In this document: positions 170 to 23,470 of the stretch, one piece after another
How positions within the stretch are numbered: position 1 is the stretch's first letter
How the letters are laid out: the number at the start of each line of letters is the position of its first letter
DNA from: Lepidodermella squamata
Taxonomy: Eukaryota; Animalia; Gastrotricha
DNA: 64,000 nucleotides
Reading direction: 5' to 3'
NCBI GenBank assembly: GCA_047495785.1
Contig: JBLDXI010000034.1
Location: 1,302,001 to 1,366,000, forward strand
The notes under the pieces: model-generated
What the model was told of the DNA's origin: nothing
The model's database searches: none
The model's input: the letters and a program-made list of their open reading frames with translations, nothing else
Position numbers and translations under genes: made by a program

Positions 170-298
170 CGCCGTTGACGGATTGCGGCCCTGTGCCCGA
201 AATCGACTGGGCGCGAACCCGGTGCGCGTCAGCTACGAGTGCGAGTCCGACTTCACGCTCGAAGGCTCGTCGACGATCATCTGCCAGGAGGGCAAGTG
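170..298 (+). pseudogene. Sushi/CCP-domain exon of a host gene, frameshifted and cut off by the Polinton terminus
   Basis: After a ttttag acceptor (168-169) the exon reads PLTDCGPVPEIDW, then in another frame VRVSYECESDFTLEGSSTIICQEGK-TG. This matches the CCP pattern C..P.I...Y.C...F.L.G....C..G.W. The Trp codon is broken at 298/299 by the element end, creating TGA. Confidence 0.6.
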
Positions 299-320
299 AG
301 TAGTAAGGATGGGAACTTTG

Positions 321-490
321 GATCAGTAATAGCAGTACGGCGATTTTTACTATAGCCGTTTGGTATAAATATACGCAATTTGCGATCAGTAATGGCAGTA
401 CGGCGATTTTTACTATACCCGTTTGGTATAAATATACGCAATTTGGGGATGAGTAATAGCAGTACGGCGATTTGTACTATAGCCGCTTCT
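321..490 (+). repeat. Subterminal tandem repeat, about 2.7 copies of a 63-64 bp unit
   Basis: Units start at 321, 384 and 448: GAT(C/G)AGTAAT(A/G)GCAGTACGGCGATTT(T/G)TACTATA(G/C)CCG(TTTGGTATAAATATACGCAATTTG). Confidence 0.95.
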
Positions 491-751
491 TGTCAATATA
501 CCTTCGTTTTAACCCACTGCTATGATTTCACCTAACTAAAATAAACAAATCTTCGTTTTTTCACCTGTTATGAGCTAAACTAATCATTTTTACACTGCTT
601 CTTTAGTGCAGCTGCAATAGAGCCCTTTTTCATTCACACAAACACTTTTTATTAGTCTTAACGTTTCAAGCAATGAATTTATAGCTGGGATAAGTCTTAT
701 CAGTTTTTCTATTCATTTGTTCAGAGATTTGTAGCGGCTTGATTGGAGGGG

Positions 752-1255
752 TTAACGTCCAGATGAACCGAATCCGTTATCGCCACGGGTCGAATTTGCT
801 GCTAGAGCGTTTTTCAATGGCCCCGTTACCGTTACTGCAGATTCTAAGCGACCATATTTTAAACACACCAACTGGGTAATACGGTCGCCTATTTTAATCT
901 TGTAAGGTGTTTTGCTGTTGTTTGCAAGGCAGACTACGATTTTTCCGGTGTAGTCGGCGTCTTTAATTCATGAAAAATACAGATATTCATTAGTAATTTT
1001 CATTATTATTTGCTTCTTACCTATTACTCCAGCGACCGTATCGATTCCATGGTTGATGCTCATTCCTGATCGACTGAATAGTTGTCCATAATATCCTCGT
1101 GGTAAACAGATTTTAATATCAGTTTGAATCAGTCCCCTGGTTCCAGGTTGCAGTGTCGTCTCTTCTGCTGAATAGATGTCCCAACCCACAGAGCCTTTAG
1201 TATGCTTTGTCGGTTCTTTAGCTTTGTTACTTGTTAGCTCTACCTTCAGCTTCAT
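752..1255 (-). CDS. dUTPase (2 exons; intron 961-1020)
   Basis: All five dUTPase motifs appear after splicing: GWDIYS, SRSG, GVI|DADYTGKI, GDRITQLV, RGDNGFGSSG. Confidence 0.93.
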
Positions 1256-1425
1256 ATTTTATAATTTATATTGTTACTGAGGTTCGATTTTTATGTGAGC
1301 GGCTACCTCCTTTCAGGCATATTGTTTTTGTAATTCAATCTTCCTTAAAAATGCATTAGGGCCTTTAGCTCTGTTGACCCCTCAGTGCTGGCTTTAATGC
1401 TTTTCATCAAAGATTCTTGGTATTG

Positions 1426-1503
1426 TATACATCCTCCTTAATTGCTGTCGGTAATTCAATAAGAAAACATCATGTCAATAAATCTTATACATCCTCCCTA
1501 ATT
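1426..1503. promoter_or_regulatory. Direct repeat TATACATCCTCC(T/C)TAATT x2 in the divergent dUTPase/dNK intergenic region
   Basis: 18-bp near-perfect copies at 1426-1443 and 1486-1503. The regulatory role is inferred from position only. Confidence 0.4.
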
Positions 1504-1689
1504 AAACAATGCGATTTTTTACTTATCAAAATAAAAAGCAATTAGGATTTTTTACCCTTTACGGTGTAATTACCTTAAACAATTCAAACAAAACATCTCC
1601 CTGTTTTTTCCTTTTATGGAAATATCACTCAGACTATTTAAGAGAGATGCTTCAAGAATACACTTAGCATATTTCTTGAAGCAAGCTGG

Positions 1690-2454
1690 ATGCATCCTAA
1701 AGTCTACCATTTCGGCATAGTCGGCAACATTGGGGCGTAAGTCTCATATACTCCACCGAATAGAATTCTATTTAAAGTCTCTTGTTTTAGCGGGAAATCA
1801 ACCTTAATCGAGGGTCTCACTAATCTACCTTCACTCAACCGTAAACTTCAGGGATATACCGCGTGGCCAATTTGCGAGCCTGTTCATCGTTGGGAGTCCT
1901 TTACTGATGACGATAAAACTAACATTTTGAAAGATTACTATCAGATGAAAAATGCGTTCAACTTTCAAATTGTAGCCACGAGTGATATGTGCGGCCTTTA
2001 TTCAGCCCCTAACCACAAACCTGAAATCTACGGGGCGCATACTATCGTTCTGCATGATCGAACGCCCTTCTGTTCTAAAAACGTCTTTATCCCATGTGCG
2101 TATGCATCCAAGCGCATAAATTCTATCGAATATCACGCTCTCATGAATTTGTATGATAATTTCGAGCCGAATTTTGTAAAAACTGAAGCTATTATTTACT
2201 TGCGCTCCTCTCCCCAAATAGCTTGTCAAAGAGCCGTAGCTAGAGCTCGGGGTTCTGAAATGCTATTATCACTGGATTATTTACGCCTCGTACATGAGTT
2301 TCATGAAAAAATGTGTACTGTTGAGACTACAAACAAATCCCTACCATGTCCCGTGCTTGTTATCGACACTGATAATTTGAATGCCTCTGAGGTTCTAAAG
2401 CAAGCTTCTCAGTATGTTGCCTCTCTTATCACGCCTGTAATCTCTCAGACTTGA
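1690..2454 (+). CDS. Deoxynucleoside kinase (dNK family; 2 exons, intron 1737-1790)
   Basis: Splicing restores the P-loop GNIGA|GKST. Also present: EPVHRW, HDRTP (ERS-like motif), IYLRSSP, lid RARGSE and YLRLVHEFHE. Confidence 0.9.
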
Positions 2455-2464
2455 ATCCTCATTG

Positions 2465-2827
2465 ATGGATCCAACAAGACTTGTGCTCTCGAACAGCCAG
2501 ATTTTAGACGCTGAATCTTTGCAATGTCCAATTTGTTTATCTATCCTACTTAATCCTATTCAAACGCGCCCCTGTGGCCATTTATTTTGTACTAAATGTG
2601 TTCTCGCTATTTTTCAAAATTCAGCTCGAACAGTATGTTGCTGTCCACTTTGCCGCGAATCATTAACAGGGAAAGATTTCGTTAAACCCCCTGTAATTTT
2701 ATCGAACATTATCTCGAATTTGATTTACAAATGCCAATATTCTGATAAAGGCTGTCCCATTACTCTAACTTATGACCTCATTTTTGGGCATGAAAAGTTA
2801 TGCCAATATAAAGAACCCATCCCTTAA
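2465..2827 (+). CDS. TRAF-type C3HC4 RING finger plus zinc finger protein (putative E3 ligase)
   Basis: CPIC...PCGHLFCTKC...CPLCR followed by CQYSDKGC...HEKLCQY. Confidence 0.88.
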   Translation: MDPTRLVLSNSQILDAESLQCPICLSILLNPIQTRPCGHLFCTKCVLAIFQNSARTVCCCPLCRESLTGKDFVKPPVILSNIISNLIYKCQYSDKGCPITLTYDLIFGHEKLCQYKEPIP

Positions 2828-2869
2828 AGTTTTACATTCTTATTTCATTAGATTTAATTTTCAATAATC

Positions 2870-3391
2870 ATGGCTGAGGCGATAGTAGAATCTGCTAACC
2901 AGACAGTCAATCATCACATGTCTAGTAACTTGGTCATTCAACAGCATCCTCAGGATTCTAATCTCATCTACATAATGACTGATCGCAAAGATAAGAACGA
3001 TAAGCCTAAAAAACTCGCCTTTAGACAAGACGAATTTCTTAGCCAGTTCGTTCCTTATTTTCGACCGCCGAATGATGCTTGGGTTGCTCAGGCTCAACTT
3101 GCCCTGCTATCTCACAACACAGGCTTTAAATTTTCGATGCATGAATGCAAAATTGAAGTCTGTGTCTTTGTGCCATCATTTTCACCGATTCTTATAGATA
3201 TACGCAGGTTTTATCTGGATGCTAAAGGTATTTACTTCAAATTTACAGTAATAGCAATCTTTTTATGATTTAACTTTTTAGGAAATAAACAACCCTCAAG
3301 ACAAGGAGTCTCTCTTGATGCAGCTCAGTTTCAAGACCTTGCAACTGGGGTGTTAACTGTTGCAGCGATGATTGAAACAGCCAATGAATAA
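2870..3391 (+). CDS. PC4/Sub1-like ssDNA-binding protein (2 exons; intron 3228-3281)
   Basis: The spliced product reads IDIRRFYLDAK|GNKQPSRQGVSLDAAQFQDL, matching the PC4 motif DIR.(F/Y)...G...P.K.G(I/V)SL...Q(W/F)..L. Confidence 0.8.
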
Positions 3392-3508
3392 GCTAACACA
3401 AAACTTGACTAAAATGACTTACTGAATATTTATTTCAATCTATCCTTGTAATAAAGTTTTACCTCTTCCCAAATTCGATCAATTTTAAATTTTTAATCTT
3501 AGATTGTT

Positions 3509-6500
3509 ATGGATAACTATAGTTTACAATACTCATTTATTCGAAGTAATCGCCTGATTCATTCTACAAAATTCAAAATGTTTTCTGTGGAGTACTTCAT
3601 TCAGCCCGTAACATCCGACTTTGCCTCAACCTACATCAACAGATATGGCCAATCTTCTAGTTCGCTTGGGCCGATGATTCAATTGTCTGGTGGCGCTGAT
3701 GAACCTCGACTGGATAATATTCGATCATTTGTGCAGAACGTACCAGCCGACCAGGTGGCTAATATTGATTTGGAGACCCGCTTCAATATTCTGGCCAACT
3801 TCCTGTTCGATATTGTTGTAAATATCCATCGTGATTTACCTGTGAATTCCTTCTGCCGGCTAACACTGTACCACCCCGACTTGAAGATGCCTCTTAGCCT
3901 ACCCTTCATGAAACGCGATCGGTTGCTGGAAATTTCAATTTTTGATCAACTGAGAAAAATATTACAGAGTAATGAAGAACTCTCATTTGCTGGTCGGTGG
4001 ACAATTCGTCTCTGTGTCATTGATAACCCCAATGCAGATCTAGGTCAAATTGTTGGTGGTTCTCGGGCAGAGCGGGCTATAAACGAAACTTTGGACAAAT
4101 TTTTTCTTCGCTCCAAATCGATCGTTAGAATCGGAGCGCGCAAGAATGAAACGAACAATCTTTGCATGGGCAGAGCTCTCATCACTGGAGTGGCTTTGGC
4201 TCACATGAAGGCGAATCCTACGGATCCATCTCTTCAAGCAACCTTCAAATCGATACGTAGTACGCGAACCAATCGTCAATTTCGCGAAGCCACGGCGCTA
4301 TATCAGAAAGCGGGCTTACCTCTCAACCTTCCAGCCTACAATCTAGATGATCATTACTCAGCCCTGTGTTCGGCTATCGATCCTGAACATAATACTTACA
4401 GATTCGTAGTATACTCGTACGAATCACAGGATGTTATTAGGGAAATCCCAGAATTTGATCATCGCGTAAGCCTTGGGTTGCTTCCTGTTGTTCTACTGGT
4501 TTATCGCAACGACGTCTCTCAGCCCAACAGTCATCATTTTCATGTCATTGCGAATCTCAACTTTATGAAGGCCACTCTTAGCAATGCACAACGAATATGC
4601 CCCACTTGCTTTCAGACGAAAACGAGTACGGCTGTGCACAGATGCAAGTTGGCATGCTCTTCCTGCCGTAATTTTTACATGAAAAACCTGAATTTCACTT
4701 CTTTTATCATTAATATTATTTTAGGTGTATCAGGGAGCATTTGCCGTGTGATTTCCAACACAGACCAACAAAACTACACGCGGTGTCCGCAATGTCGTGC
4801 AGGTCTGATGTTTTTAACCTTTTCATTATTATTCAGCTCTTTTTATGTTTTTAGTTTTGTATAGCGAACGTTGTAAGCAAAACCACAAATGTGCTAAAAA
4901 GAATCCATGCTTTAAATGCGGGAGGAAATTTGTACATTTTCTCAAGCATGAGGCTATGTGTCCCGGGCGGCGCTGTCACATTTGTCAGGAGCCTTTGAAA
5001 GCCAGCGACGAAGAAAATGGCACACACTTCTGCTTCATGACTCCCTTGGTATACTCATTTTTTTCAGTCCAGCTTTTTTCAAAATACTGTGGTTGGTGTA
5101 TTTTTAGCCCTTGAAACCGGCGAATAAACTGGAACGTTATCGTAACCTAGTTTTTTGGGACACTGAGACATTTTCGCCATCACTTGCTGATAACAACAAT
5201 GAGTTCCAAGTATGCCTTATCGTTGCAAAGGTCGTATGCATACCTCACTGCATCGAAGCGAGGATTCAGCGATGCCATTCTAGTTGTGGACTTCATATTT
5301 TTTATGGAAGTCGTCCTCTGGAGGATTTCGTAAACTGGGTGCTTCTACCTATGAATTACCAGTCGATTTATTTGGCTCACAACTCAGCCAATTTCGATTC
5401 CTTATTATTACTGAAAGAAATTCAAACACGATGTTCTAAAGTGAAGATTCTTCAAAGGCAGGGATCTCTACTATGCATTGATTTCAAACAACAAAAAATC
5501 AGATTTTTGGATTCATATCTCTTTTTTCAATGCAGATTAAGGTAGGTTACCTAAGAAACACTAAGAAACTACATTGCTTACAGGTATTTGTTCAACAACA
5601 GGGATTTACCAGCAACAATGGGAATCCCAGACAAGAAAACCTTCTTTCCTTACGTCTTATGCACTAAAGAAAAGTAAGTACATCATCAACTTCTTGAGCT
5701 ATTGTGATTGAATTCGCTGTAATCCTTCGAGTTTCAATCTCGAATTCCCACAGCTGCCTAATATGATCTACTATGAGCCTGACAAAATGTCTCCTTCTGA
5801 AAGAGCAGAATTTCTAACTTTCTACAACGAAAACAAACTGAAACGGTTCAGTGTTCGCCACACGTTACTGCAATACTGCATACAGGATTGTCTAGTTTTG
5901 GAAAAGGCGTCAATCAAATTTCGGGCGCTAATGCTGGAGTTGTGTTCTACTGATGCCTTTAAAGAATGCATCACACTAGCTTCTCTCACAAGCACATGCT
6001 TCCGCAAGCTGTTTCTTACGAAGGATACATTACCTGTCATCCCGACCGCTGGCTACTGTGGCAAGGATTCACACAGCAGGCTCTCGATAGCTTTTCTTCA
6101 ATTTCTGATGGAGTCTGACCCTGAAACTTATGGTTCAATGAAACACGCTCAGAACTCACGTCAAGAAGTTCGAATATCTATACCTGGCCACCGTTATCCT
6201 TATCGCGTCGACGGTTTTGTTGCACGTCGTGATAAAATTCCGAGTGAACCCGATCTGATTGTCGAGGTTCATGGTTGTGCTGTCCATGGCTGCTTGCAAT
6301 GCTTTGAGGCCTCACAACTAAATTTTCTATCTGGACAACCAAACGGCGTAGTTTACAAGCAAACCTTGGAACGTGAAGAGTTGTTTCGCTCGAATGGTTA
6401 CATTCTTCAAAGCTTTTGGGAGCATGAAATTAGAGCTAGTTTCAAACAACACCCGAGAGCACAGGAGATTTATGATAATCTCACAATAGCTAATGTAATG

Positions 6501-8190
6501 GAGAGCCGTTCGTTTTTCTTTGGAGGTAACTGGAGGTTTTCCCTATTTAATCTTCGCGGGATTAAAACATCATGCCTACTTTTTAGGGCGGGTCGAAGCT
6601 TTTCGTTTAATGGCTATGATTGCCGAATCACACTCAACTTCAGGCGACCAAAATTTGGAAAAGATTGCTCAAATTTGTAAGGAAAGCGGGATGCAAACCA
6701 AGGACTTCTTATTTCCATCGCCCGATTATTCTATAATTTCCGCCGACTTCAACTCGTTATATCCAAGCTGTATGATGGATGGCTACTATGCAATAGGACC
6801 ACCTAAAGTATCCACCTTGGATCTCAGATTAAACAACGAGAAACTGCAGGAGATTTATTCAAAGGAATCTTTTTTTGGTGTCGTACAAGCACGCGTAAGC
6901 TCTTCGCATCTACATATCGTCTCCCTGCTTTCATCATCACCACATTATTTTGCTAGGTATTAGCGCCGAAAAACATCTGGCTACCTGTACTCTGCTTTCG
7001 TAGTAAACAAAACAAGCTCGTGTTCTCATGTTGCTATGCTTGTTCGTCGACTGCAAATCCAAACTTGTGCGTTTCAAGCCGTGAATGCACCCATTCTGAT
7101 TATGAAAGGTCCTGGATTGGTTCGTATTGCTCTGTGGAACTGAAGTACGCTACAGATGTTCATGGCTACAGATTGCTGGAAGTCTACGAGGTTAATAATT
7201 TTGTTTAGCCAACTCATGCATGGCTTCTATCAAGTTATTTTTTTTAGATATGGGAGTTCAAGAAGAGCAATACAATTTTCAGAGATTTCATTAAAAGATT
7301 CACCATTTTGAAGGCCGAATCCTCCGGCTGGCCGCCAAACTGTGCTACTAGTGAACAAAAAGCACAGTATTTGGAGCAATGGGAACGCATTGGTATAACG
7401 ATTGATAGCACCAAGTTGGATAAAAAGAACCCTGGGTTACGCGCGATCGCCAAATTAGTTTTGAACAGCTTTTTTGGTCGATTTGCTATGAATTCTAATC
7501 TAGAGAGAACAGATTATATCAAATCCCCGTTTCTGCTTCAGCAAATGCTAAATAATCCAGCTTTGGAAATTGTGGATATTCAACCACTAGGCTTACTCAT
7601 CAACTCTGATGATGTCTCTCGCTTGCGAATTGTAACACGGCCAACCAAAGATGCCGACGTTCCAAATGGATCCACCTCAGTTATAACAGCGGCCTTCGTA
7701 ACAGCTAATGCTCGTGTGAAACTGGCTCGTGAGCTGTACCGAGTCGGCCCAAAAAGTGCTATCTACAGCGGTTAGAGAATAGCGCCGCTTATGCTACCAA
7801 CATCTCTACGTTTTTTGTCTTTTGTTTTAGACACGGATTCAATTTTTTGCCTTCAAGGGCCTGGAATTACTAAAATTGAGTTCACACCCGTTCTTGGCGG
7901 CTTGGCGGATCAGCTTGATACAGGGCAACGCATCATTGCAATGGTTGTACTGGGCTGTAAGGCATATGCCCTACTTTTTGCTGACGGCAAAGCCAAGCTA
8001 ATGTTAAAGGTAATTGCTACTTGTTGTTACGCCCTCTGTTTTTTATTATTTACGTCACGCGCAGGGAATACGTCAAAGTTTTCATTCACGCAGTCTTCTC
8101 GATTTTTTCTTGTTCATCAAGCATGTAATACAAAGTCTCCACGATAACGAAACCAGCGGAAGCGGGGGCCGGGGTGATAACAACAAGTAG
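3509..8190 (+). CDS. Protein-primed family B DNA polymerase (Polinton pPolB), 11 exons, C-terminally truncated
   Basis: Introns at 4668-4724, 4803-4854, 5049-5107, 5542-5601, 5674-5731, 6526-6586, 6895-6956, 7191-7247, 7771-7830 and 8010-8064. Splicing gives one frame with ExoI WDTET, ExoII AHNSANFD, ExoIII YCIQD, FFG|GRVE, motif A DFNSLYPS, motif B KLVLNSFFGRF, motif C YS|DTDS, KAY and K|G. The start may be 3509 or 3578. Confidence 0.93.
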
Positions 8191-11100
8191 CAATTACCTT
8201 TAACATTAGCTTGGCTTTGCCGTCAGCAAAAAGTAGGGCATATGCCTTACAGCCCAGTACAACCATTGCAATGATGCGTTGCCCTGTATCAAGCTGATCC
8301 GCCAAGCCGCCAAGAACGGGTGTGAACTCAATTTTAGTAATTCCAGGCCCTTGAAGGCAAAAAATTGAATCCGTGTCTAAAACAAAAGACAAAAAACGTA
8401 GAGATGTTGGTAGCATAAGCGGCGCTATTCTCTAACCGCTGTAGATAGCACTTTTTGGGCCGACTCGGTACAGCTCACGAGCCAGTTTCACACGAGCATT
8501 AGCTGTTACGAAGGCCGCTGTTATAACTGAGGTGGATCCATTTGGAACGTCGGCATCTTTGGTTGGCCGTGTTACAATTCGCAAGCGAGAGACATCATCA
8601 GAGTTGATGAGTAAGCCTAGTGGTTGAATATCCACAATTTCCAAAGCTGGATTATTTAGCATTTGCTGAAGCAGAAACGGGGATTTGATATAATCTGTTC
8701 TCTCTAGATTAGAATTCATAGCAAATCGACCAAAAAAGCTGTTCAAAACTAATTTGGCGATCGCGCGTAACCCAGGGTTCTTTTTATCCAACTTGGTGCT
8801 ATCAATCGTTATACCAATGCGTTCCCATTGCTCCAAATACTGTGCTTTTTGTTCACTAGTAGCACAGTTTGGCGGCCAGCCGGAGGATTCGGCCTTCAAA
8901 ATGGTGAATCTTTTAATGAAATCTCTGAAAATTGTATTGCTCTTCTTGAACTCCCATATCTAAAAAAAATAACTTGATAGAAGCCATGCATGAGTTGGCT
9001 AAACAAAATTATTAACCTCGTAGACTTCCAGCAATCTGTAGCCATGAACATCTGTAGCGTACTTCAGTTCCACAGAGCAATACGAACCAATCCAGGACCT
9101 TTCATAATCAGAATGGGTGCATTCACGGCTTGAAACGCACAAGTTTGGATTTGCAGTCGACGAACAAGCATAGCAACATGAGAACACGAGCTTGTTTTGT
9201 TTACTACGAAAGCAGAGTACAGGTAGCCAGATGTTTTTCGGCGCTAATACCTAGCAAAATAATGTGGTGATGATGAAAGCAGGGAGACGATATGTAGATG
9301 CGAAGAGCTTACGCGTGCTTGTACGACACCAAAAAAAGATTCCTTTGAATAAATCTCCTGCAGTTTCTCGTTGTTTAATCTGAGATCCAAGGTGGATACT
9401 TTAGGTGGTCCTATTGCATAGTAGCCATCCATCATACAGCTTGGATATAACGAGTTGAAGTCGGCGGAAATTATAGAATAATCGGGCGATGGAAATAAGA
9501 AGTCCTTGGTTTGCATCCCGCTTTCCTTACAAATTTGAGCAATCTTTTCCAAATTTTGGTCGCCTGAAGTTGAGTGTGATTCGGCAATCATAGCCATTAA
9601 ACGAAAAGCTTCGACCCGCCCTAAAAAGTAGGCATGATGTTTTAATCCCGCGAAGATTAAATAGGGAAAACCTCCAGTTACCTCCAAAGAAAAACGAACG
9701 GCTCTCCATTACATTAGCTATTGTGAGATTATCATAAATCTCCTGTGCTCTCGGGTGTTGTTTGAAACTAGCTCTAATTTCATGCTCCCAAAAGCTTTGA
9801 AGAATGTAACCATTCGAGCGAAACAACTCTTCACGTTCCAAGGTTTGCTTGTAAACTACGCCGTTTGGTTGTCCAGATAGAAAATTTAGTTGTGAGGCCT
9901 CAAAGCATTGCAAGCAGCCATGGACAGCACAACCATGAACCTCGACAATCAGATCGGGTTCACTCGGAATTTTATCACGACGTGCAACAAAACCGTCGAC
10001 GCGATAAGGATAACGGTGGCCAGGTATAGATATTCGAACTTCTTGACGTGAGTTCTGAGCGTGTTTCATTGAACCATAAGTTTCAGGGTCAGACTCCATC
10101 AGAAATTGAAGAAAAGCTATCGAGAGCCTGCTGTGTGAATCCTTGCCACAGTAGCCAGCGGTCGGGATGACAGGTAATGTATCCTTCGTAAGAAACAGCT
10201 TGCGGAAGCATGTGCTTGTGAGAGAAGCTAGTGTGATGCATTCTTTAAAGGCATCAGTAGAACACAACTCCAGCATTAGCGCCCGAAATTTGATTGACGC
10301 CTTTTCCAAAACTAGACAATCCTGTATGCAGTATTGCAGTAACGTGTGGCGAACACTGAACCGTTTCAGTTTGTTTTCGTTGTAGAAAGTTAGAAATTCT
10401 GCTCTTTCAGAAGGAGACATTTTGTCAGGCTCATAGTAGATCATATTAGGCAGCTGTGGGAATTCGAGATTGAAACTCGAAGGATTACAGCGAATTCAAT
10501 CACAATAGCTCAAGAAGTTGATGATGTACTTACTTTTCTTTAGTGCATAAGACGTAAGGAAAGAAGGTTTTCTTGTCTGGGATTCCCATTGTTGCTGGTA
10601 AATCCCTGTTGTTGAACAAATACCTGTAAGCAATGTAGTTTCTTAGTGTTTCTTAGGTAACCTACCTTAATCTGCATTGAAAAAAGAGATATGAATCCAA
10701 AAATCTGATTTTTTGTTGTTTGAAATCAATGCATAGTAGAGATCCCTGCCTTTGAAGAATCTTCACTTTAGAACATCGTGTTTGAATTTCTTTCAGTAAT
10801 AATAAGGAATCGAAATTGGCTGAGTTGTGAGCCAAATAAATCGACTGGTAATTCATAGGTAGAAGCACCCAGTTTACGAAATCCTCCAGAGGACGACTTC
10901 CATAAAAAATATGAAGTCCACAACTAGAATGGCATCGCTGAATCCTCGCTTCGATGCAGTGAGGTATGCATACGACCTTTGCAACGATAAGGCATACTTG
11001 GAACTCATTGTTGTTATCAGCAAGTGATGGCGAAAATGTCTCAGTGTCCCAAAAAACTAGGTTACGATAACGTTCCAGTTTATTCGCCGGTTTCAAGGGC

Positions 11101-12698
11101 TAAAAATACACCAACCACAGTATTTTGAAAAAAGCTGGACTGAAAAAAATGAGTATACCAAGGGAGTCATGAAGCAGAAGTGTGTGCCATTTTCTTCGTC
11201 GCTGGCTTTCAAAGGCTCCTGACAAATGTGACAGCGCCGCCCGGGACACATAGCCTCATGCTTGAGAAAATGTACAAATTTCCTCCCGCATTTAAAGCAT
11301 GGATTCTTTTTAGCACATTTGTGGTTTTGCTTACAACGTTCGCTATACAAAACTAAAAACATAAAAAGAGCTGAATAATAATGAAAAGGTTAAAAACATC
11401 AGACCTGCACGACATTGCGGACACCGCGTGTAGTTTTGTTGGTCTGTGTTGGAAATCACACGGCAAATGCTCCCTGATACACCTAAAATAATATTAATGA
11501 TAAAAGAAGTGAAATTCAGGTTTTTCATGTAAAAATTACGGCAGGAAGAGCATGCCAACTTGCATCTGTGCACAGCCGTACTCGTTTTCGTCTGAAAGCA
11601 AGTGGGGCATATTCGTTGTGCATTGCTAAGAGTGGCCTTCATAAAGTTGAGATTCGCAATGACATGAAAATGATGACTGTTGGGCTGAGAGACGTCGTTG
11701 CGATAAACCAGTAGAACAACAGGAAGCAACCCAAGGCTTACGCGATGATCAAATTCTGGGATTTCCCTAATAACATCCTGTGATTCGTACGAGTATACTA
11801 CGAATCTGTAAGTATTATGTTCAGGATCGATAGCCGAACACAGGGCTGAGTAATGATCATCTAGATTGTAGGCTGGAAGGTTGAGAGGTAAGCCCGCTTT
11901 CTGATATAGCGCCGTGGCTTCGCGAAATTGACGATTGGTTCGCGTACTACGTATCGATTTGAAGGTTGCTTGAAGAGATGGATCCGTAGGATTCGCCTTC
12001 ATGTGAGCCAAAGCCACTCCAGTGATGAGAGCTCTGCCCATGCAAAGATTGTTCGTTTCATTCTTGCGCGCTCCGATTCTAACGATCGATTTGGAGCGAA
12101 GAAAAAATTTGTCCAAAGTTTCGTTTATAGCCCGCTCTGCCCGAGAACCACCAACAATTTGACCTAGATCTGCATTGGGGTTATCAATGACACAGAGACG
12201 AATTGTCCACCGACCAGCAAATGAGAGTTCTTCATTACTCTGTAATATTTTTCTCAGTTGATCAAAAATTGAAATTTCCAGCAACCGATCGCGTTTCATG
12301 AAGGGTAGGCTAAGAGGCATCTTCAAGTCGGGGTGGTACAGTGTTAGCCGGCAGAAGGAATTCACAGGTAAATCACGATGGATATTTACAACAATATCGA
12401 ACAGGAAGTTGGCCAGAATATTGAAGCGGGTCTCCAAATCAATATTAGCCACCTGGTCGGCTGGTACGTTCTGCACAAATGATCGAATATTATCCAGTCG
12501 AGGTTCATCAGCGCCACCAGACAATTGAATCATCGGCCCAAGCGAACTAGAAGATTGGCCATATCTGTTGATGTAGGTTGAGGCAAAGTCGGATGTTACG
12601 GGCTGAATGAAGTACTCCACAGAAAACATTTTGAATTTTGTAGAATGAATCAGGCGATTACTTCGAATAAATGAGTATTGTAAACTATAGTTATCCAT
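8178..12698 (-). pseudogene. Mirror copy of pPolB, cut inside intron 10
   Basis: Identical to the left copy up to ...KLMLK|gtaattgctacttgttgtta, then runs into the antisense of the spacer and lacks exon 11. Confidence 0.9.
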
Positions 12699-12815
12699 AA
12701 CAATCTAAGATTAAAAATTTAAAATTGATCGAATTTGGGAAGAGGTAAAACTTTATTACAAGGATAGATTGAAATAAATATTCAGTAAGTCATTTTAGTC
12801 AAGTTTTGTGTTAGC

Positions 12816-13337
12816 TTATTCATTGGCTGTTTCAATCATCGCTGCAACAGTTAACACCCCAGTTGCAAGGTCTTGAAACTGAGCTGCATCAAGAGAGACT
12901 CCTTGTCTTGAGGGTTGTTTATTTCCTAAAAAGTTAAATCATAAAAAGATTGCTATTACTGTAAATTTGAAGTAAATACCTTTAGCATCCAGATAAAACC
13001 TGCGTATATCTATAAGAATCGGTGAAAATGATGGCACAAAGACACAGACTTCAATTTTGCATTCATGCATCGAAAATTTAAAGCCTGTGTTGTGAGATAG
13101 CAGGGCAAGTTGAGCCTGAGCAACCCAAGCATCATTCGGCGGTCGAAAATAAGGAACGAACTGGCTAAGAAATTCGTCTTGTCTAAAGGCGAGTTTTTTA
13201 GGCTTATCGTTCTTATCTTTGCGATCAGTCATTATGTAGATGAGATTAGAATCCTGAGGATGCTGTTGAATGACCAAGTTACTAGACATGTGATGATTGA
13301 CTGTCTGGTTAGCAGATTCTACTATCGCCTCAGCCAT
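12816..13337 (-). CDS. PC4-like ssDNA-binding protein (mirror copy)
   Basis: Mirror of 2870-3391. Confidence 0.8.
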
Positions 13338-13379
13338 GATTATTGAAAATTAAATCTAATGAAATAAGAATGTAAAACT

Positions 13380-13742
13380 TTAAGGGATGGGTTCTTTATA
13401 TTGGCATAACTTTTCATGCCCAAAAATGAGGTCATAAGTTAGAGTAATGGGACAGCCTTTATCAGAATATTGGCATTTGTAAATCAAATTCGAGATAATG
13501 TTCGATAAAATTACAGGGGGTTTAACGAAATCTTTCCCTGTTAATGATTCGCGGCAAAGTGGACAGCAACATACTGTTCGAGCTGAATTTTGAAAAATAG
13601 CGAGAACACATTTAGTACAAAATAAATGGCCACAGGGGCGCGTTTGAATAGGATTAAGTAGGATAGATAAACAAATTGGACATTGCAAAGATTCAGCGTC
13701 TAAAATCTGGCTGTTCGAGAGCACAAGTCTTGTTGGATCCAT
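13380..13742 (-). CDS. TRAF-type RING finger protein (mirror copy)
   Basis: Mirror of 2465-2827 with identical translation. Confidence 0.88.
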   Translation of the reverse strand: MDPTRLVLSNSQILDAESLQCPICLSILLNPIQTRPCGHLFCTKCVLAIFQNSARTVCCCPLCRESLTGKDFVKPPVILSNIISNLIYKCQYSDKGCPITLTYDLIFGHEKLCQYKEPIP

Positions 13743-13752
13743 CAATGAGGAT

Positions 13753-14517
13753 TCAAGTCTGAGAGATTACAGGCGTGATAAGAGAGGCAACATACTGAGA
13801 AGCTTGCTTTAGAACCTCAGAGGCATTCAAATTATCAGTGTCGATAACAAGCACGGGACATGGTAGGGATTTGTTTGTAGTCTCAACAGTACACATTTTT
13901 TCATGAAACTCATGTACGAGGCGTAAATAATCCAGTGATAATAGCATTTCAGAACCCCGAGCTCTAGCTACGGCTCTTTGACAAGCTATTTGGGGAGAGG
14001 AGCGCAAGTAAATAATAGCTTCAGTTTTTACAAAATTCGGCTCGAAATTATCATACAAATTCATGAGAGCGTGATATTCGATAGAATTTATGCGCTTGGA
14101 TGCATACGCACATGGGATAAAGACGTTTTTAGAACAGAAGGGCGTTCGATCATGCAGAACGATAGTATGCGCCCCGTAGATTTCAGGTTTGTGGTTAGGG
14201 GCTGAATAAAGGCCGCACATATCACTCGTGGCTACAATTTGAAAGTTGAACGCATTTTTCATCTGATAGTAATCTTTCAAAATGTTAGTTTTATCGTCAT
14301 CAGTAAAGGACTCCCAACGATGAACAGGCTCGCAAATTGGCCACGCGGTATATCCCTGAAGTTTACGGTTGAGTGAAGGTAGATTAGTGAGACCCTCGAT
14401 TAAGGTTGATTTCCCGCTAAAACAAGAGACTTTAAATAGAATTCTATTCGGTGGAGTATATGAGACTTACGCCCCAATGTTGCCGACTATGCCGAAATGG
14501 TAGACTTTAGGATGCAT
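13753..14517 (-). CDS. Deoxynucleoside kinase (mirror copy)
   Basis: Mirror of 1690-2454. Confidence 0.9.
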
Positions 14518-14951
14518 CCAGCTTGCTTCAAGAAATATGCTAAGTGTATTCTTGAAGCATCTCTCTTAAATAGTCTGAGTGATATTTCCATAAAAGGAAA
14601 AAACAGGGAGATGTTTTGTTTGAATTGTTTAAGGTAATTACACCGTAAAGGGTAAAAAATCCTAATTGCTTTTTATTTTGATAAGTAAAAAATCGCATTG
14701 TTTAATTAGGGAGGATGTATAAGATTTATTGACATGATGTTTTCTTATTGAATTACCGACAGCAATTAAGGAGGATGTATACAATACCAAGAATCTTTGA
14801 TGAAAAGCATTAAAGCCAGCACTGAGGGGTCAACAGAGCTAAAGGCCCTAATGCATTTTTAAGGAAGATTGAATTACAAAAACAATATGCCTGAAAGGAG
14901 GTAGCCGCTCACATAAAAATCGAACCTCAGTAACAATATAAATTATAAAAT

Positions 14952-15455
14952 ATGAAGCTGAAGGTAGAGCTAACAAGTAACAAAGCTAAAGAACCGACAA
15001 AGCATACTAAAGGCTCTGTGGGTTGGGACATCTATTCAGCAGAAGAGACGACACTGCAACCTGGAACCAGGGGACTGATTCAAACTGATATTAAAATCTG
15101 TTTACCACGAGGATATTATGGACAACTATTCAGTCGATCAGGAATGAGCATCAACCATGGAATCGATACGGTCGCTGGAGTAATAGGTAAGAAGCAAATA
15201 ATAATGAAAATTACTAATGAATATCTGTATTTTTCATGAATTAAAGACGCCGACTACACCGGAAAAATCGTAGTCTGCCTTGCAAACAACAGCAAAACAC
15301 CTTACAAGATTAAAATAGGCGACCGTATTACCCAGTTGGTGTGTTTAAAATATGGTCGCTTAGAATCTGCAGTAACGGTAACGGGGCCATTGAAAAACGC
15401 TCTAGCAGCAAATTCGACCCGTGGCGATAACGGATTCGGTTCATCTGGACGTTAA
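14952..15455 (+). CDS. dUTPase (mirror copy; intron 15187-15246)
   Basis: Mirror of 752-1255. Ends RGDNGFGSSGR* with AATAAA near 15554. Confidence 0.93.
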
Positions 15456-15716
15456 CCCCTCCAATCAAGCCGCTACAAATCTCTGAACAAATGAATAGAA
15501 AAACTGATAAGACTTATCCCAGCTATAAATTCATTGCTTGAAACGTTAAGACTAATAAAAAGTGTTTGTGTGAATGAAAAAGGGCTCTATTGCAGCTGCA
15601 CTAAAGAAGCAGTGTAAAAATGATTAGTTTAGCTCATAACAGGTGAAAAAACGAAGATTTGTTTATTTTAGTTAGGTGAAATCATAGCAGTGGGTTAAAA
15701 CGAAGGTATATTGACA

Positions 15717-15886
15717 AGAAGCGGCTATAGTACAAATCGCCGTACTGCTATTACTCATCCCCAAATTGCGTATATTTATACCAAACGGGTATAGTAAAAA
15801 TCGCCGTACTGCCATTACTGATCGCAAATTGCGTATATTTATACCAAACGGCTATAGTAAAAATCGCCGTACTGCTATTACTGATC
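15717..15886 (-). repeat. Subterminal 63-bp tandem repeats (mirror copy)
   Basis: Mirror of 321-490. Confidence 0.95.
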
Positions 15887-15908
15887 CAAAGTTCCCATCC
15901 TTACTACT

Positions 15909-16552
15909 CACGACTGATCTTCCATTTCAAGTGAGGCGAAGGAGGATTTTGGGTGTAGGCCTCTTTCTCTCTCGTCAGAGCGCTTTTGCCACGAGATACT
16001 AACTGAGAGAACACAAGATTATTGAAAGAAATGGTATGAAATCGTTCCTACCTGATCAACACTTTCAGGTCTGCTGTCCAAGACTTGCCGAAGTCGCTCA
16101 GCAGTTTCTCGGCGTAGATTCTCCGACTCCTTCGAGGAAATTTGCTAAAAATGCATGAAGTTGGGACGTGGACTTCATACCTGAAATCTCTGCTCGGCCT
16201 CGGCCACTTTTCGATCATTCGTCATTTTGTATGTCATAAATTGTTCTTCCAGCTTTGAGATCATTTGTGTAAGTTGCTGCTTCAGGACCATCATTTCACT
16301 CTTCAAAGCCGAGTTTTCCTTCCGCAACTTTGTTAAAGAAAAGTTATATACGAAACACCTCGAAAATTAATTTGAGACCTTGTCGATTAGATAGTCTTTA
16401 TTGGATTCAATTGTTTGAGGACTAGAATCTGCCCCGCTGTAATCGCGGCTTCGGGCTCTCACTGCGCTTCGAGATGTCAAAATCGGCTCGGCAAGCACAA
16501 AGAAGGGATGTCCACCCGCGGTCGAAAACCTCGCAACCCCAGTCAGCGCCAT
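15909..16552 (-). pseudogene. 5' part of a host coiled-coil gene interrupted by the right Polinton terminus
   Basis: Four exons joined by short GT-AG introns read in frame: ...DYLIDK|LRKENSALKSEMMVLKQQL...EQRFQ|QISSKESENLRRETAERL...VDQ|LVSRGKSAL...HLKWKISR. The frame then hits AGTAGT without a stop codon of its own. Confidence 0.6.
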
Positions 16553-16910
16553 TGGATAGAACTAAACGCTAATAGCAATTCACTAAAAACAAATTCGGAC
16601 AGATGAGGTGTGAGAGCAGCGTGGCGGTTGTTAAAGGCCTACGGAGAGTTAGTGACGTGATTTGCTTAGATACCGCAAGTGCACCCGAAGGATTCGTCAG
16701 GCAGCATTTTTTTCGATCTCATCTAACGGCTCCATAGCAATAATACTCTGTTGTAAATTATGCATACATCGATAAATATCAGATTTCCGCGATCCATGTT
16801 TTATTCATACCACAGGTATTATCCGACTCTCTCTTGACCACACGGAATTAATTAAAATTTTATATAATAAATCAAGTAAAATCAATGCCAGTTAAAGATT
16901 TGAAGTGTAA

Positions 16911-18457
16911 TTACGAATTTTTAGCCGAGGTTTTGACGAAAACGGTTTTCGTCTCAAGGTAGGCGTCCAAGCCTTCCTCGCCCTTCTCTCGACCCCAGCC
17001 GCTCATCTTGTAGCCACCGAATGGCGCACCATCGCTACCAACACCGTAGCAGTTAACCCAGACAGTTCCAGCTCTGAGTCCCTCGCTAATGTAATTGATG
17101 GTGTCAACATTCTTCGAGAAAACAGCAGAGCCAAGGCCATACGACGTATTGTTGGCTCGCTCAATGACTTCGTCCAAAGTCGAAAATTTCAGAATTTGCA
17201 TGACCGGGCCGAAAATTTCCTCCCTAGCAATGCGCATGTCGTCCTTGACATCGGCGAACACAGTTGGCTCGAAGAAATTGCCCTTGCCAGCGATACGTTT
17301 GCCGCCGCATTTCAGAGTCGCGCCCTCCTTGATGCCGGATTCCACGAGCTCAGCGATCTTCTTCATTGATGGTTCATCGATTTGAGCACCCTGTTCAACG
17401 CCGATTTCAAACGGATCGCCAACCGTGCGCTTCTTGGCACGAGCAGCACTGGCTTCGACAAATTTGTCGTAGATAGACTCGTGGACGAAGGTTCGCGAGC
17501 CAGCAAGGCAGCATTGCCCTTGATTGAAGAAAAGCGCTTGGTGGGAAGCTTCAACAGCGTAGTCAACTGAAACAAAAGCTTTTTTATCAGAGGCGATCTT
17601 CCGAGCATAAACTTACAATCAGCATCCTCGCAAACAATGTTAGGACTCTTGCCTCCCAACTCCAGGGTTACTCGCTTTAAATTGGTCGCTCCAGCGGCTT
17701 GGGCAATCAAACGGCCAACTTCAGTCGAGCCAGTGAAGCTGAGCTTATCAACATCCATATGGTTCGACAAAGCAGCGCCGGCAGTTGGGCCATAGCCAGA
17801 CACGATGTTGACAACGCCATCAGGAAAACCCGCTTCCTTCGTCAAATGAGCGACGTACAAAGCCGATAGTGGTGATTGTTCAGCCGTCTTCATGACAACT
17901 GTGCAACCAGCAGCCAAGGCCGGGGCCAACTTCATCGACTGCAGCAACAGCGGGAAGTTCCATGGGACGATGAGACCGGCAACTCCCTTAGGCTCGCGAC
18001 GGGTGTAGCAGAAAAATGGACCTTCCGTTGGAATGGTCTTTCCGCAGATTTTGTCAGCCAATCCTCCGCAGTAGCGGTAGTAGTTGATCGCGATTTGAAG
18101 ATCGACCAAGTAAGCTTCAGCGTACGGCTTTCCGACGTTCAGAGTCTCGAGCGAGGCTAGGTATTGGCGGTCACGTTCGATCAAGTCAGCGAGTTTAGCA
18201 AGCAGACGGCCTCGTTGCACCGGGTCCATGGTTCGCCATGGTGAGTTGAGCGCGAACGCCTTGCGCGCTGCTTTCACAGCGACGTCGATATCCTCGGCAA
18301 GACCTTCGGCAACGTCGCAGATTTTCTCGCCTGTTGCTGGGTTGATGGCCGGGAATGTTTTGCCACTGATTGACGGCACCCATTGGTTGTTGATGAAGTG
18401 CTGGGTGAATTTCACTTCAGGGTTGCGATTCGGTGGTGGAACTTGTGGTGCTGCCAT
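16911..18457 (-). CDS. Aldehyde dehydrogenase, ALDH1/2 family, no presequence (cytosolic-type); intron 17567-17616
   Basis: [18 protein letters not shown], catalytic FNQGQCC, EEIFGP and PFGGYKMSG motifs. Confidence 0.95.
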
Positions 18458-19927
18458 TTTTTGGTTTAATTCGGGCAAAAAAGCGGTTTGTACCGGTGAT
18501 GCGCAATTGTGCGCGCTTTATACAGCCAACTTCAGTTGATAAAAAAATAACGGAATGAACGCGATAAAGCTTATTAATCCAAACCATTTGAGATAAAATG
18601 TCCAAACCAGCTGTCTCGGTGATAAACCCAGATTGGGGACGTCCGGAAAATAAATCAGTTAAAAAGGGCAGCTCGAAAATGGCACCTTTGCTAATTGAAG
18701 CCGGTTGTGTTGATGATAAGGCCAGGTTGCTATTAACATCGTTCGTGACGCTGCCTATCATTCCATTTGGCTGTAACTTCTTCCAGTGTGTCATAAGAAG
18801 TAGAAAATATCGCATAACGGAGCACTATGGCGATATACTGTCAGATCGGGAGAATTTTACAGTCGGGGTCACTTTGACATGCCGAAATGGGGCGAATTCA
18901 GCAAATTGGAACATGGCTAGGCGAAAACGCTTTGAAAGCCCAGGAAAATTGGAAAAATAATTTGATTTTTGAACGAATTTCGAGGACTCAGCAGCTGGAC
19001 GGTTTCCATCAAAATAACGAAATTGTTTCATTTTTAGAAGCCCTCTTTGGAGTCCGGCTGTATTAATACTTATTTCAAATTTCAAATTTCGAAGCTTTCC
19101 ATCAAGCACTTCCGCTAGCTATAAAGACTTCAATTGAGCACTTTTCGCGGACTGAGGTAAATATCTCAATGTTGTCGGCTTCAAATCTATATCTTTGAAA
19201 TATGCATTTTCATCGAAGTGTCAAGCAGGTCGACAGTTTTAGAACGGAAATTGCTCATTAAGATTCCTATCCACGTCGCGGCGAGTTTCAATATCGGGCG
19301 TCAATTTCAAAAATAAGTAATTAGAACTTGGATGAGGGATTTCTGCTTATATTCGCATATAGTAATGCCATAATACCAGCGTGCGAAACATGTTGAACTT
19401 CGACCACCATGTGAACCGATGCTGTTATTTGCGGTCATCATTTCAAATTAATTACCTGTTCAACTGCAAATAAATTAAGGCAATCCCATTCATCCGTGAT
19501 GTGGTATAAACATAGGCGCGGCTTATCGCTACTGCAACTGGTATATTTACACACCACCGAAAAAAAACGTTAACCACGCCACATAGCAGCCTCGTTACTG
19601 GCATAATGAAGATACGTCTGCTTATCTTCCTATCGAGTACCGCAAATTTACCCTGTTTTCTGCTACGAGAGGAGAGCCGATAAGGCTCGTTAAGCACCCT
19701 AGATAAAAAACTGCCAGTCATGTCCAAACAAATAGGTAAAGAGATACTACGAGAGCAAAAAAGGCTGTGCTTTATTTCGCCGGAAGAAAAACAAGTGACT
19801 CCCTAAAATATTTGACGAGAAAAAATGCAAGTGTTGTGAATCCTCAATCAAAAAAAATATAGGCACACGGTCGATTTTCATAAATCAAGAAGAAAAACCA
19901 GTTATTTTAATCTCAGCAGCAGTTTTT

Positions 19928-21584
19928 TTACGAATTCTTCTGCGGAACCTTGGTGATGACGCATTTCGGCTCGGTGTACGCTTCGATGCCGTAGTCGCCC
20001 TTCTCACGACCCCAGCCGCTCATCTTGAAACCGCCGAACGGCGCCTGGTCCGAGAAAATATCATAGCAATTGACCCAAACAGTTCCAGCGCGAACGCCTT
20101 GAGTCAAATAGTTGATCTTATCGACGTCACTCGAGAAAATAGCCGCTGCCAAGCCGTAGGAAGTCTTATTCGCACGCTCGATAACTTCATCGAGCTTCTT
20201 GAACTTCAAAATCTGCATAACCGGGCCGAAGATCTCCTCACGGGCGATCGTCATATCGTCCTTGACGTCGGAGAAAACGGTCGGGGCAACGAAGTAACCC
20301 TTCGATCCGACACGGCTGCCGCCAGTGTGGAGCACGGCGCCTTCCTTCTTGCCGGTTTCGATGAGGCCGAGAATCTTCTTCATCTGGCTTTCATCGACCT
20401 GGGGGCCTTGCTCGTTCTTCGGGTCGAACGGGTCGCCAACAGTGCGCTTCTTCGCGCGAGCAACGCTAGCCTCGACGAACTTGTCGTAGATCGATTCTTC
20501 AACAAAAGTCCTCGAACCAGCGGTGCAGCACTGGCCTTGGTTGAAGAACAGACCGAAGTGAGCCTGTTCGACGGCGTAGTCGAAGTCGCAGTCAGCGAGG
20601 ATGATGTTAGGGCTCTTGCCGCCGAGCTCAAGGGTAACACGCTTCAAATTGCTTTGAACAGCCATTTCAGCGACCTTGACACCAATCTCCGTCGAGCCGG
20701 TGAAAGCAACCTTATCAACGTCAGGATGGCGGGCAAGGGCAGCACCAGCAGTTGGGCCGTAACCCGAAACGATGTTGATGACACCTTCGGGGAAACCGGC
20801 TTCCTTGGCGAGGTTAGCGACGTATAGAGCAGAAAGGGGGGTCTGCTCTGCAGTCTTCATAACAACAGTGCAACCTGCTGCGAGGGCTGGTCCTAGTTTC
20901 CAAGCTTGCATCAGAAGAGGGAAGTTCCACGGGATGATCTGACCAACAACTCCCTTTGGTTCATGGCGAGTGTATGCAAAGAAGTCGCCATCTGTTATTA
21001 CAATGTTATAATTAGTTAAATGTCAGAGCCATAAGAACTCACCAACAGGGATGACTTTGCCCTGAATTTTATCCGCAATACCAGCGTAGTAACGAAGATG
21101 GCTGATCGAAAGCGGAACATCAATGTTGTATGAGGCAGAGTAGGGCTTGCCGTTATCGAGAGTCTCCAGCGACTAATAGGAAACAAAAAAATTTTAGGAT
21201 CCAAACGCAATCGGCCAAACACACCGCAATATAACGACGATCGCGCTCCATCAAATCTGCGAGTTTGTACAAGAGGCGACCACGCTGTGATGCGTCCATA
21301 CGGCGCCAAGGCGAGCCAAGACGAAAAGCATCACGCGCAGCAGCGACAGCCTTGTCGATTTCGGCCTTGTCGCCCTCGGCAACTTCGACTATTTTCTCGC
21401 CTGTCGCTGGGTTCAAAACAGGGAAAGTCTTCTTGCTTGCCGACTCAACCCACTCGTTGTTGATGAAATGCTTGACATATTTTATTTCCGGCTTGCGGAT
21501 CGGCTCAGCAATAGCAGCCGCAGACAAAGCACGGGCAGGAGTGAATCGGGCAGCAAATGCTGCACCACGGATGAGGCTCGACAT
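19928..21584 (-). CDS. ALDH2: Mitochondrial-type aldehyde dehydrogenase (ALDH2-like); introns 20992-21042, 21173-21224
   Basis: Arg/Ala-rich presequence [21 protein letters not shown], plus [29 protein letters not shown] and EEIFGP. Confidence 0.9.
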
Positions 21585-23470
21585 CACGACGTAACTCGAC
21601 TAGAAAAGAAAATAAGAATACAATAAGAAAGTTTCTCCAATCGGAATTTTCTGAATTACGACACTGTAGCTGCTTGGGAGATTACGGGTACTTATGCTTA
21701 AAAAATGGTTTCAGCGTTTTTATTAGAAGTCGACAACGAGAAGGGTAGGTGGTTTGGAGAGAAACTTTCGAAAGTGGATATTGTCTCATGTAACGGTGGC
21801 GATGCGATAAGATGTGACTGTTCCTTGAGATACACATGTAAAGGAAGACTCGTCGATCAACAGGTAACACAGTCAGAAGGCAACAGGACAAGATCGAGAA
21901 TGGTCCAAACTCCACACTCAGGGGCCTCTCTGCACGTGAAGAGCGTCACATGATCTGATTTTTGGCGCGTCTTTGCGGTTGAAGGTGAACAAATGATTTT
22001 GTTAAAAGCTCAATTACACTGATAAAACAATTTATGCAATCCCAAATATCAGTTATTGCTCTATTATCTTTATAAATTTGCCGCATGCTATTTAAAATAA
22101 AAAATCGTCTTCTCCAAGTGTCCGCTTACGCATAACGAGCTCATGAAACTACGCCGAGATAGTGCTTTCGATGAGGATTCACGAAACAATGGGAATCAGT
22201 ATATGTTACCTACTCCTTACTCCCGAATCTGACGCATGCCTTGCTTTTAAGATGAAAACTTGAATGTTGCATGGCGAATGGGTTAAACCTTGTCGACTAG
22301 CCTGCTTCGCCTAGAATTTCACACCTGGAATAAGACAATCCGAATACATCAACATTCATGACTAGATTCCACTTCTGTCCTTCATCACAGTTCGGCAGAT
22401 GCCGTTTGATCTCAGATCGCCCACTTTGTTGAGCGCATGGACTCCGTCTTGACTGAAACAGCCGACCTCAACCTCCCGGATTCCGGACGGACTAGAGTTC
22501 TCTGACTGAGTTATGATCGCACGCAGAGCCACCTTTCCCATAGGAAAGGAGAGTTTATATGCAGAATGCTTTATTCGGAGCTGCAACTAACTACACGCTG
22601 GAATTGACTTGTTTCAGCTCACTTATCGCACTTCTTCAGGAGATGACTTCTAGCCAATAATTGATGCCAATCGCTTGAGCTTTATACGATTCATCGCGAA
22701 TTAAGACCCTTCAGAAATACTTGAATTTCCCTTCGAGATCGCTATTTCACAAAACGATTGAAAGGGAAATAAGTTTTGTCTGTGAAAAAACGTAATTCCT
22801 AATTCTCCAAGGCGCTTTGCAGTAGGTGTACGTTTATTGTGCACATCGATTAGGTAATAGCACTCAGCATGTAACTCCTTGTTGTATGTACATCATTATA
22901 GATCAACGCCGCAATCAATCATCACTGAACATGATCGTGACTAAGCCCCGAGTAGGTCACTTTAACCGCAAATATACAGCGGTCGCCACTGAAGCCGCTA
23001 AAAGGAAGATTTTCACTGCTCGGTACCACATTTTCAGTGCATCATGTTAATTTCTAATGAATAAACATCACAAGATTCCCATTACACAAATCTTAGTAGT
23101 AAACGAAAATTCTGCAGTTGATTGGATTGCAGCCTCCGAATCATAGGTGGAATAAAACATGCATTGCAAAAACAACTGTTTCCACTATGTTTTACTTTTT
23201 CAATTTGCCATCAAAGCGACCAGCTCAATGCCAGCAGCAGAAGTACAAAAAGCGCATCTCAAACAAAATTCAGAAGTTAATACCATAACATGACATAATA
23301 AGCCGATGTTTCGCATAACAATGTCCCGTACCAGTGCAATAAAAATTAGTGCATGTGGAATTACTATGAGCTGATTTAGCGGTGCCTTTTTCATAATGAG
23401 AAAATATAAGAATAAAACCGCTCAGCTGGGCGGAATAAAACAATAGTGGAAAATTTGCAATAGGTATAGT

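Follow-up and report, generated by a model that had tools for sequence, protein, structure and literature searches.

The window analyzed here is a 64,000-nt stretch of the genome of the gastrotrich Lepidodermella squamata (assembly GCA_047495785.1, contig JBLDXI010000034.1, positions 1,302,001 to 1,366,000 of the forward strand). Near its start lies what is likely part of an animal Polinton/Maverick-type element, and four genes of this element, encoding a protein-primed DNA polymerase B (pPolB), a dUTPase, a deoxynucleoside kinase (dNK), and a PC4-like protein, are interrupted by 13 short segments, 10 of them in pPolB. These segments are confirmed as real spliceosomal introns of host-like size; a branch point and use of the spliceosome would be expected from their size and ends. 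All 13 have GT-AG ends, measure 52 to 62 nt (standard deviation, 3 nt), and lie within coding sequence. We consider it probable that they were acquired singly while the element, still active, resided for a long time in host nuclei.

The decisive evidence comes from RNA. Four public runs were compared over positions 8030 to 18700, which hold the second, mirrored arm of the element and its flank. Run X1 is DNA, runs X2 and X3 are RNA (X3 from a second study), and the stretch was absent from run X4. The records of X2 and X3 do not label them as RNA; their nature was derived from the behavior of their contigs, which carry poly-T ends on host genes such as ALDH, have host introns spliced out, and show zero depth in two intergenic bins. 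An earlier note, made from the sequence alone, had predicted the introns and named junction reads as the check. X2 contigs skip all 13 introns at the predicted sizes and canonical ends (with a slide of 0 to 3 nt allowed by the flanks), X3 has at least 5 of the 13 joints among those listed (pPolB introns 8, 9, and 10 and the dNK and PC4-like introns), and X1 has joints at none of the 13 sites, with five weaker joints falling outside the listing. A single X2 contig of 4,731 nt (record 9) matches the arm over 3,874 letters, which equals a 4,400-nt span minus nine introns, and it also carries the intron 10 joint. Since all ten pPolB introns are absent from this contig, the majority transcript path is fully spliced. 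An alternative acceptor for intron 4 at position 5583 (42 nt) was ruled out, as RNA skips 60 nt.

The reading frames agree with the RNA. Each frame switch or stop in the genes of the arm coincides with a GT..AG segment of 52 to 62 nt, and removal of the ten pPolB segments leaves all 11 exons stop-free in the frame passed on from the preceding exon. If retained in pPolB, four introns would bring an internal stop and five would shift the frame; intron 1 is in frame. The sequence also bears out the conserved motifs that the earlier note described as split (YS/DTDS, FFG/GRVE, K/G, GNIGA/GKST, and GVI/DADY, with the slash marking the intron). GC content is 34% in pPolB introns versus 43% in exons, and intron density reaches 2.4 per coding kb in pPolB and 1.75 per kb for the element (13 in 7.4 kb). 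A bare GT..YAG pattern is not discriminating, with 22 matches on the coding strand versus 18 on the other, and proof of the introns therefore rests on RNA and homology. When 152 homologous polymerases were aligned with an X at each junction, 833 of 858 junction crossings fell within 5 residues and only 2 had 15 or more extra residues. Homologues thus lack insertions at the junctions, and the segments are not coding insertions.

As the earlier note held, the introns resemble those of the host in size. Eight short host introns with RNA support measure 50, 51, 51, 52, 52, 55, 56, and 66 nt; these are the best-supported joints, among the best 15 of 33, with one size taken from a separate listing. 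The element introns belong to this same size class and are slightly longer. At 52 to 62 nt, they are too short for any homing endonuclease.

Table 1. Features of the element and its mirror arm, in window positions
Feature	Position	Strand	Evidence or remark
Element terminus	299..503	+	Begins AGTAGTA; followed at 314-503 by tandem repeats (three of 63 nt); immediately preceded by a Sushi-like fragment of the host
dUTPase gene, two exons	752..1255	-	PF00692 positions 2-68 in exon 1, 70-129 in exon 2
dUTPase intron, 60 nt, phase 1, GT-AG	961..1020 (minus strand, 1020-961)	-	X2 RNA joint
dNK gene, two exons, start codon inferred	1690..2454	+	PF01712, E 1e-21
dNK intron, 54 nt, phase 2, inside P-loop	1737..1790	+	X2 and X3 RNA joints, short sides 29 and 28 letters
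RING-finger open reading frame (ORF), no intron seen	2465..2827	+	PF00097
PC4-like gene, two exons, weak label	2870..3391	+	PF02229 only E 0.33, on exon 2
PC4-like gene intron, 54 nt, phase 1	3228..3281	+	X2 and X3 RNA joints
pPolB gene, 11 exons in window, 3' end cut by fold-back, start codon inferred	3509..8177	+	PF03175 in four ORFs; 1,972 relatives at E<=0.001; exon frames
pPolB intron 1, 57 nt, phase 1, in frame, stop-free	4668..4724	+	X2 joint
pPolB intron 2, 52 nt, phase 1	4803..4854	+	X2 joint
pPolB intron 3, 59 nt, phase 0	5049..5107	+	X2 joint
pPolB intron 4, 60 nt, phase 2	5542..5601	+	X2 joint
pPolB intron 5, 58 nt, phase 2	5674..5731	+	X2 joint
pPolB intron 6, 61 nt, phase 1, in FFGGR motif	6526..6586	+	X2 joint
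pPolB intron 7, 62 nt, phase 0	6895..6956	+	X2 joint
pPolB intron 8, 57 nt, phase 0	7191..7247	+	X2 and X3 joints
pPolB intron 9, 60 nt, phase 1, in first Asp codon of catalytic YxDTDS motif	7771..7830	+	X2 and X3 joints
pPolB intron 10, 55 nt, phase 0	8010..8064	+	X2 and X3 joint 8063/8200 on opposite strands = 55-nt skip
Fold-back centre, 148-nt spacer	8021..8186	.	8178-8186 = reverse complement of 8021-8029; 8186 = limit of match to other copies
Mirror arm, 100% identical inverted copy (x -> 16207-x)	8178..15908	-	Ends at second host flank

The match to PF03175 in four ORFs, together with the large number of relatives, identifies the protein-primed family B polymerase that is a feature of Polintons/Mavericks, and the element behaves as a Polinton does and is likely one, with membership pending its integrase and capsid genes. 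Within pPolB, an insert at 6141 to 6440 is common to homologues and has motifs of the kind seen in VSR-like nucleases, which makes it a candidate VSR-like domain; the insert had no Pfam nuclease match and exon 6 no match to a solved structure in the PDB. The end of PC4-like exon 1 had no domain match. Between the dUTPase and dNK genes, the divergent region at 1256 to 1689, in which a short motif occurs twice (near 1425 and near 1487), is a possible bidirectional promoter.

The two arms are a single element end mirrored at a 9-nt fold-back, and there is one set of 13 introns. Positions 296 to 8029 and 8178 to 15911 form an inverted repeat with 100% identity over 7,734 nt, separated by a 148-nt spacer. 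The earlier count of 13 introns per arm therefore stands as to the introns themselves, all real and GT-AG, but the arms mirror one set and do not hold two independent ones. Contigs of X1, X2, and X3 run past 8186 into sequence absent from the window (733 additional letters in the X2 contig), and among the contigs listed none read straight through the palindrome center. Both element ends in the window are the same end mirrored, and the true far end lies outside it. The flanks, CAAGTG and CACGAC, are not a direct repeat, i.e., no 6-bp target-site duplication was seen; they likely derive from two insertions, and X1 shows other host sequence before 15908. The window copy thus probably fuses two insertions, with unrelated host flanks, through the fold-back and does not show the native layout; it may be a chimera produced during amplification or assembly, or a defective copy that arose naturally. 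Fold-back chimeras arise in strand-displacement synthesis; like the palindrome here, they are perfect inverted duplications in which the loop is short and a brief complementary match lies at the turn. The left host flank (171 to 298) is a Sushi-domain fragment (PF00084) with an apparent frame change upstream; it is cut by the element end and likely represents a disrupted gene.

Contig depth and divergence bear on whether the element is active. X1 depth is ~1,500 to 2,800 inside the element (4,808 in the terminal bin) versus 78 to 177 on host DNA, i.e., ~20 to 30 times the flank, contig depth not being copy number. Seven X1 contigs listed match the element over 6,425 letters with 0 differences, with 45 differences and 392 pieces outside those listed; the host flank in X1 has 36 differences in ~1,800 letters (~2%). 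From the high depth and the lack of differences over the listed letters, we infer either that the family is young and multi-copy or that the DNA replicates extrachromosomally. In X1, several loose ends at 15832 to 15908, at the terminus or close to it, indicate other insertion sites as well as related variants of the terminal repeat.

Turning to the origin of the introns, the pattern favors introns acquired separately and long ago rather than in a recent introner burst. Similarity between introns equals that of shuffled sequences (best pair score of 21 versus a shuffle mean of 20.7; 300 shuffles), contrary to the introner-like origin that the earlier note had raised, and boundary repeats are only 0 to 3 nt. 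Introns compared with the rest of the window gave no clear match beyond words of 11 to 15 nt. A recent introner burst is not supported, given the lack of mutual intron similarity, and neither is local tandem duplication, as introns do not copy their own flanking exons (12 introns tested; P = 0.12 to 0.99). Exons end in AG at 7 of the 13 sites versus a 5% background (P = 1e-6), the usual proto-splice context. Because homologous proteins run through the intron sites, gain specific to this lineage, as the earlier note proposed, is the likely reading of the alignments. Also in its favor, the element polymerase has a long terminal branch in a core tree, 1.36 versus a median of 0.64 (midpoint root; 648 columns; 64 of the 152 homologues, kept because they span the core).

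Under the explanation that we consider probable, host RNA polymerase II and the major spliceosome would produce the element mRNAs, and the element family would be multi-copy and recently mobile. Production of the polymerase would depend on splicing, since 9 of the 10 introns in pPolB either contain a stop or alter the reading frame. The introns may persist mainly because their removal is efficient and their cost small.

It is possible, though on balance unlikely, that the introns are instead adaptive camouflage, selected because they let transcripts evade a host surveillance directed at foreign RNA with few introns, or because splicing is needed for export. Such selection might explain why an intron is seen in four of the five element genes, with transcripts in two studies, and why pPolB, at its 2.4 introns per coding kb, looks denser in introns than its host neighbors, whose density was partly measured. 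There are also precedents: introns hinder co-transcriptional or nuclear silencing in Caenorhabditis elegans (10.1101/089763), HUSH silences intronless DNA in vertebrates (PMC7619638), and the latency genes of a punuivirus are intron rich (10.64898/2026.10.09.758095). However, the host itself has long intron-free coding sequence, including an SMC3 ORF of 651 codons, a GTPase ORF of 632 codons, and a glutaminase exon of ~460 codons. Within the element, pPolB exon 1 runs for 1,159 nt, and the RING gene has no RNA joint, X2 record 10 crossing the mirror of 1881 to 2955 without any. Vertebrates and nematodes have documented surveillance of this kind, and yet the core genes of their Mavericks lack introns.

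An older origin, in which the introns were inherited from an intron-rich Polinton clade or gained in an earlier host so that the element arrived already spliced, is doubtful as well. It would suit introns slightly longer than those of the host, and there are hints of introns elsewhere: of 54 truncated homologues, 13 stop at a dipeptide resembling a splice donor versus a 10.6% background (P = 0.004, for a pattern picked post hoc), and two of them, P0167 and P0249, break off inside motif C. Against such an origin, these two fit an intron two codons downstream of pPolB intron 9, i.e., at a different position, and neither is close kin of the element polymerase. Also against it, 58 of 150 homologues are single proteins that extend through the C terminus of the profile. 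More broadly, the ORF calls of P0167, P0249, P0202, P0221, and P0282, all unrelated pPolB, end as if read into a splice donor. Such ORF ends suggest that other intron-bearing pPolB genes may exist in public contigs, as leads only. A scan for loci related to exon 9 gave 7 pattern matches in IMG/VR viral contigs and 593 in JGI metagenome contigs, with 0 confirmed in either.

An old introner burst, with introns since diverged beyond recognition, would account for the narrow size range and has a parallel in the introners known in dinoflagellate eupolintoviruses (PMC12166617). We regard it as improbable, given the absence of mutual similarity, the minimal boundary repeats, and the lack of clear matches in the window described above; the host's own short introns are similarly narrow in size. 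Still less credible is a relic, domesticated or no longer mobile, whose genes are transcribed as the host's own. Intron gain is often taken to mean long endogenization (PMC12768974 and 10.64898/2026.10.09.758095), and the window shows neither an integrase or capsid gene nor a target-site duplication, but the terminus is intact, depth is far above the flank, divergence across runs is near zero versus ~2% in host DNA, and the sequence at the 15908 boundary differs in X1 contigs. A decayed element with frameshifts or coding insertions, a reading to which the in-frame, stop-free intron 1 and the chance frequency of GT..YAG might lend some color and which the earlier note had named as a refuting outcome, is refuted by the canonical RNA joints at all 13 sites and by homologues that cross these sites without extra residues.

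Several points weigh against lineage-specific gain by a still active Polinton. The best pPolB relatives are 25 to 41% identical over exon 6, the nearest homologues are at ~30 to 37% identity, and no close relative was found; a word-based search returned only two distant pPolB relatives and one dNK relative. With no close relative, the gain is neither dated nor polarized, and the introns may derive from an intron-rich clade. The intron-free state of the homologues is inferred from long proteins on contigs of 16 to 23 kb (P0138 and P0153), not from DNA. Element introns are longer than those of the host (median of 58 versus 52 nt; Mann-Whitney P = 0.03, with 8 host introns), and the apparent excess of introns in pPolB over host neighbors is unexplained by pure tolerance. 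Low-level intron retention would be masked in contigs. Integrase, packaging ATPase, protease, and capsid genes were found nowhere within the 64-kb window, from which the rest of the element is absent, and the limits given above for depth and for the listed X1 contigs count in the same direction.

A broader proposition is that this is an active, multi-copy animal polintovirus lineage whose core replication genes have been made host-style spliced, one case of widespread, hidden intron-rich Polintons that ORF surveys discard as fossils, with introns that shield the element from silencing. We offer it tentatively. The part concerning surveys is in line with the earlier note, which expected such elements to be scored as decayed; this is likely, considering that Mavericks are both described and screened as intronless. 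Intact vertebrate Mavericks are defined by intronless ORFs, with no introns seen and Kapitonov and Jurka 2006 cited as agreeing (PMC8097293); in nematode Mavericks, introns are described for cargo genes only and the core genes have none (10.1101/2022.07.12.499685); and endogenous viruses are stated not to contain introns (PMC10120064). Surveys accordingly require intronless ORFs or apply prokaryotic gene finders because such viruses are said to lack introns (PMC8097293 and PMC10120064). With ten pPolB introns, the element described here fails the "intact" screen of PMC8097293, which calls for intronless conserved ORFs. The accessible portions of PMC10748475, PMC12220804, PMC8502044, PMC11296320, 10.1101/2024.03.25.586562, 10.64898/2026.07.28.741278, and 10.64898/2026.10.13.758929 make no mention of a spliceosomal pPolB intron. 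Our literature search yielded no report of a spliced animal pPolB, and as most subscription papers, Repbase, and supplements fell outside it, an earlier mention is possible.

Elsewhere in the window, host genes include SMC3, glutaminase, ALDH, sulfotransferase, and thyroglobulin-repeat genes. The glutaminase is 62 to 65% identical to its best named relatives, including nemertean, hemichordate, annelid, and mollusc proteins. Two ALDH genes at 16784 to 21600 form a tandem pair ~3 kb apart, both expressed and polyadenylated, with differing positions among the introns listed. An inverted repeat at 56942 to 57217 (90-nt arms, 93% complementary, 96 nt apart) is possibly a small non-autonomous element.

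The element is likely still functional, even though it would look broken to the usual intron-blind searches. A core replicase can bear ten introns and yet be fully spliced in an apparently young family, so counts of active elements are likely too low. Moreover, the genes involved have known relatives free of introns, and their 13 datable gains may offer a handle on the origin of introns and on whether mobile DNA gains protection from silencing by them.

Among known systems, the element is most readily compared with animal Polintons/Mavericks (eupolintoviruses and adintoviruses). It shares with them a PF03175-type pPolB, the polymerase of Nasonia vitripennis (P0151) being among the named relatives, and an apparent multi-copy state. 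Polinton termini start with AG and short AGT repeats, as does the terminus here. It differs from vertebrate and nematode Mavericks, whose core genes are intronless, in carrying ten introns, demonstrated by RNA, in its core replicase. Eupolintoviral elements of dinoflagellates (PMC12166617) likewise contain intron-type insertions inside Polinton-like elements, but those belong to recent, repeated introner families with ~25% in coding regions, and the intactness of the elements is left unclear there; the introns described here are unique in sequence, all in coding regions, shown to be spliced, and in an animal. Host-type GT-AG introns in functional DNA viruses, linked to nuclear transcription or latency, are also found in mirusviruses (PMC12768974) and in a punuivirus endogenous giant virus (10.64898/2026.10.09.758095), which are other virus groups with protist or algal hosts. 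In comparison, a mirusvirus episome has 0.65 introns per kb (PMC12768974), versus the 1.75 per kb of the gastrotrich element, where the introns are concentrated in the replicase.

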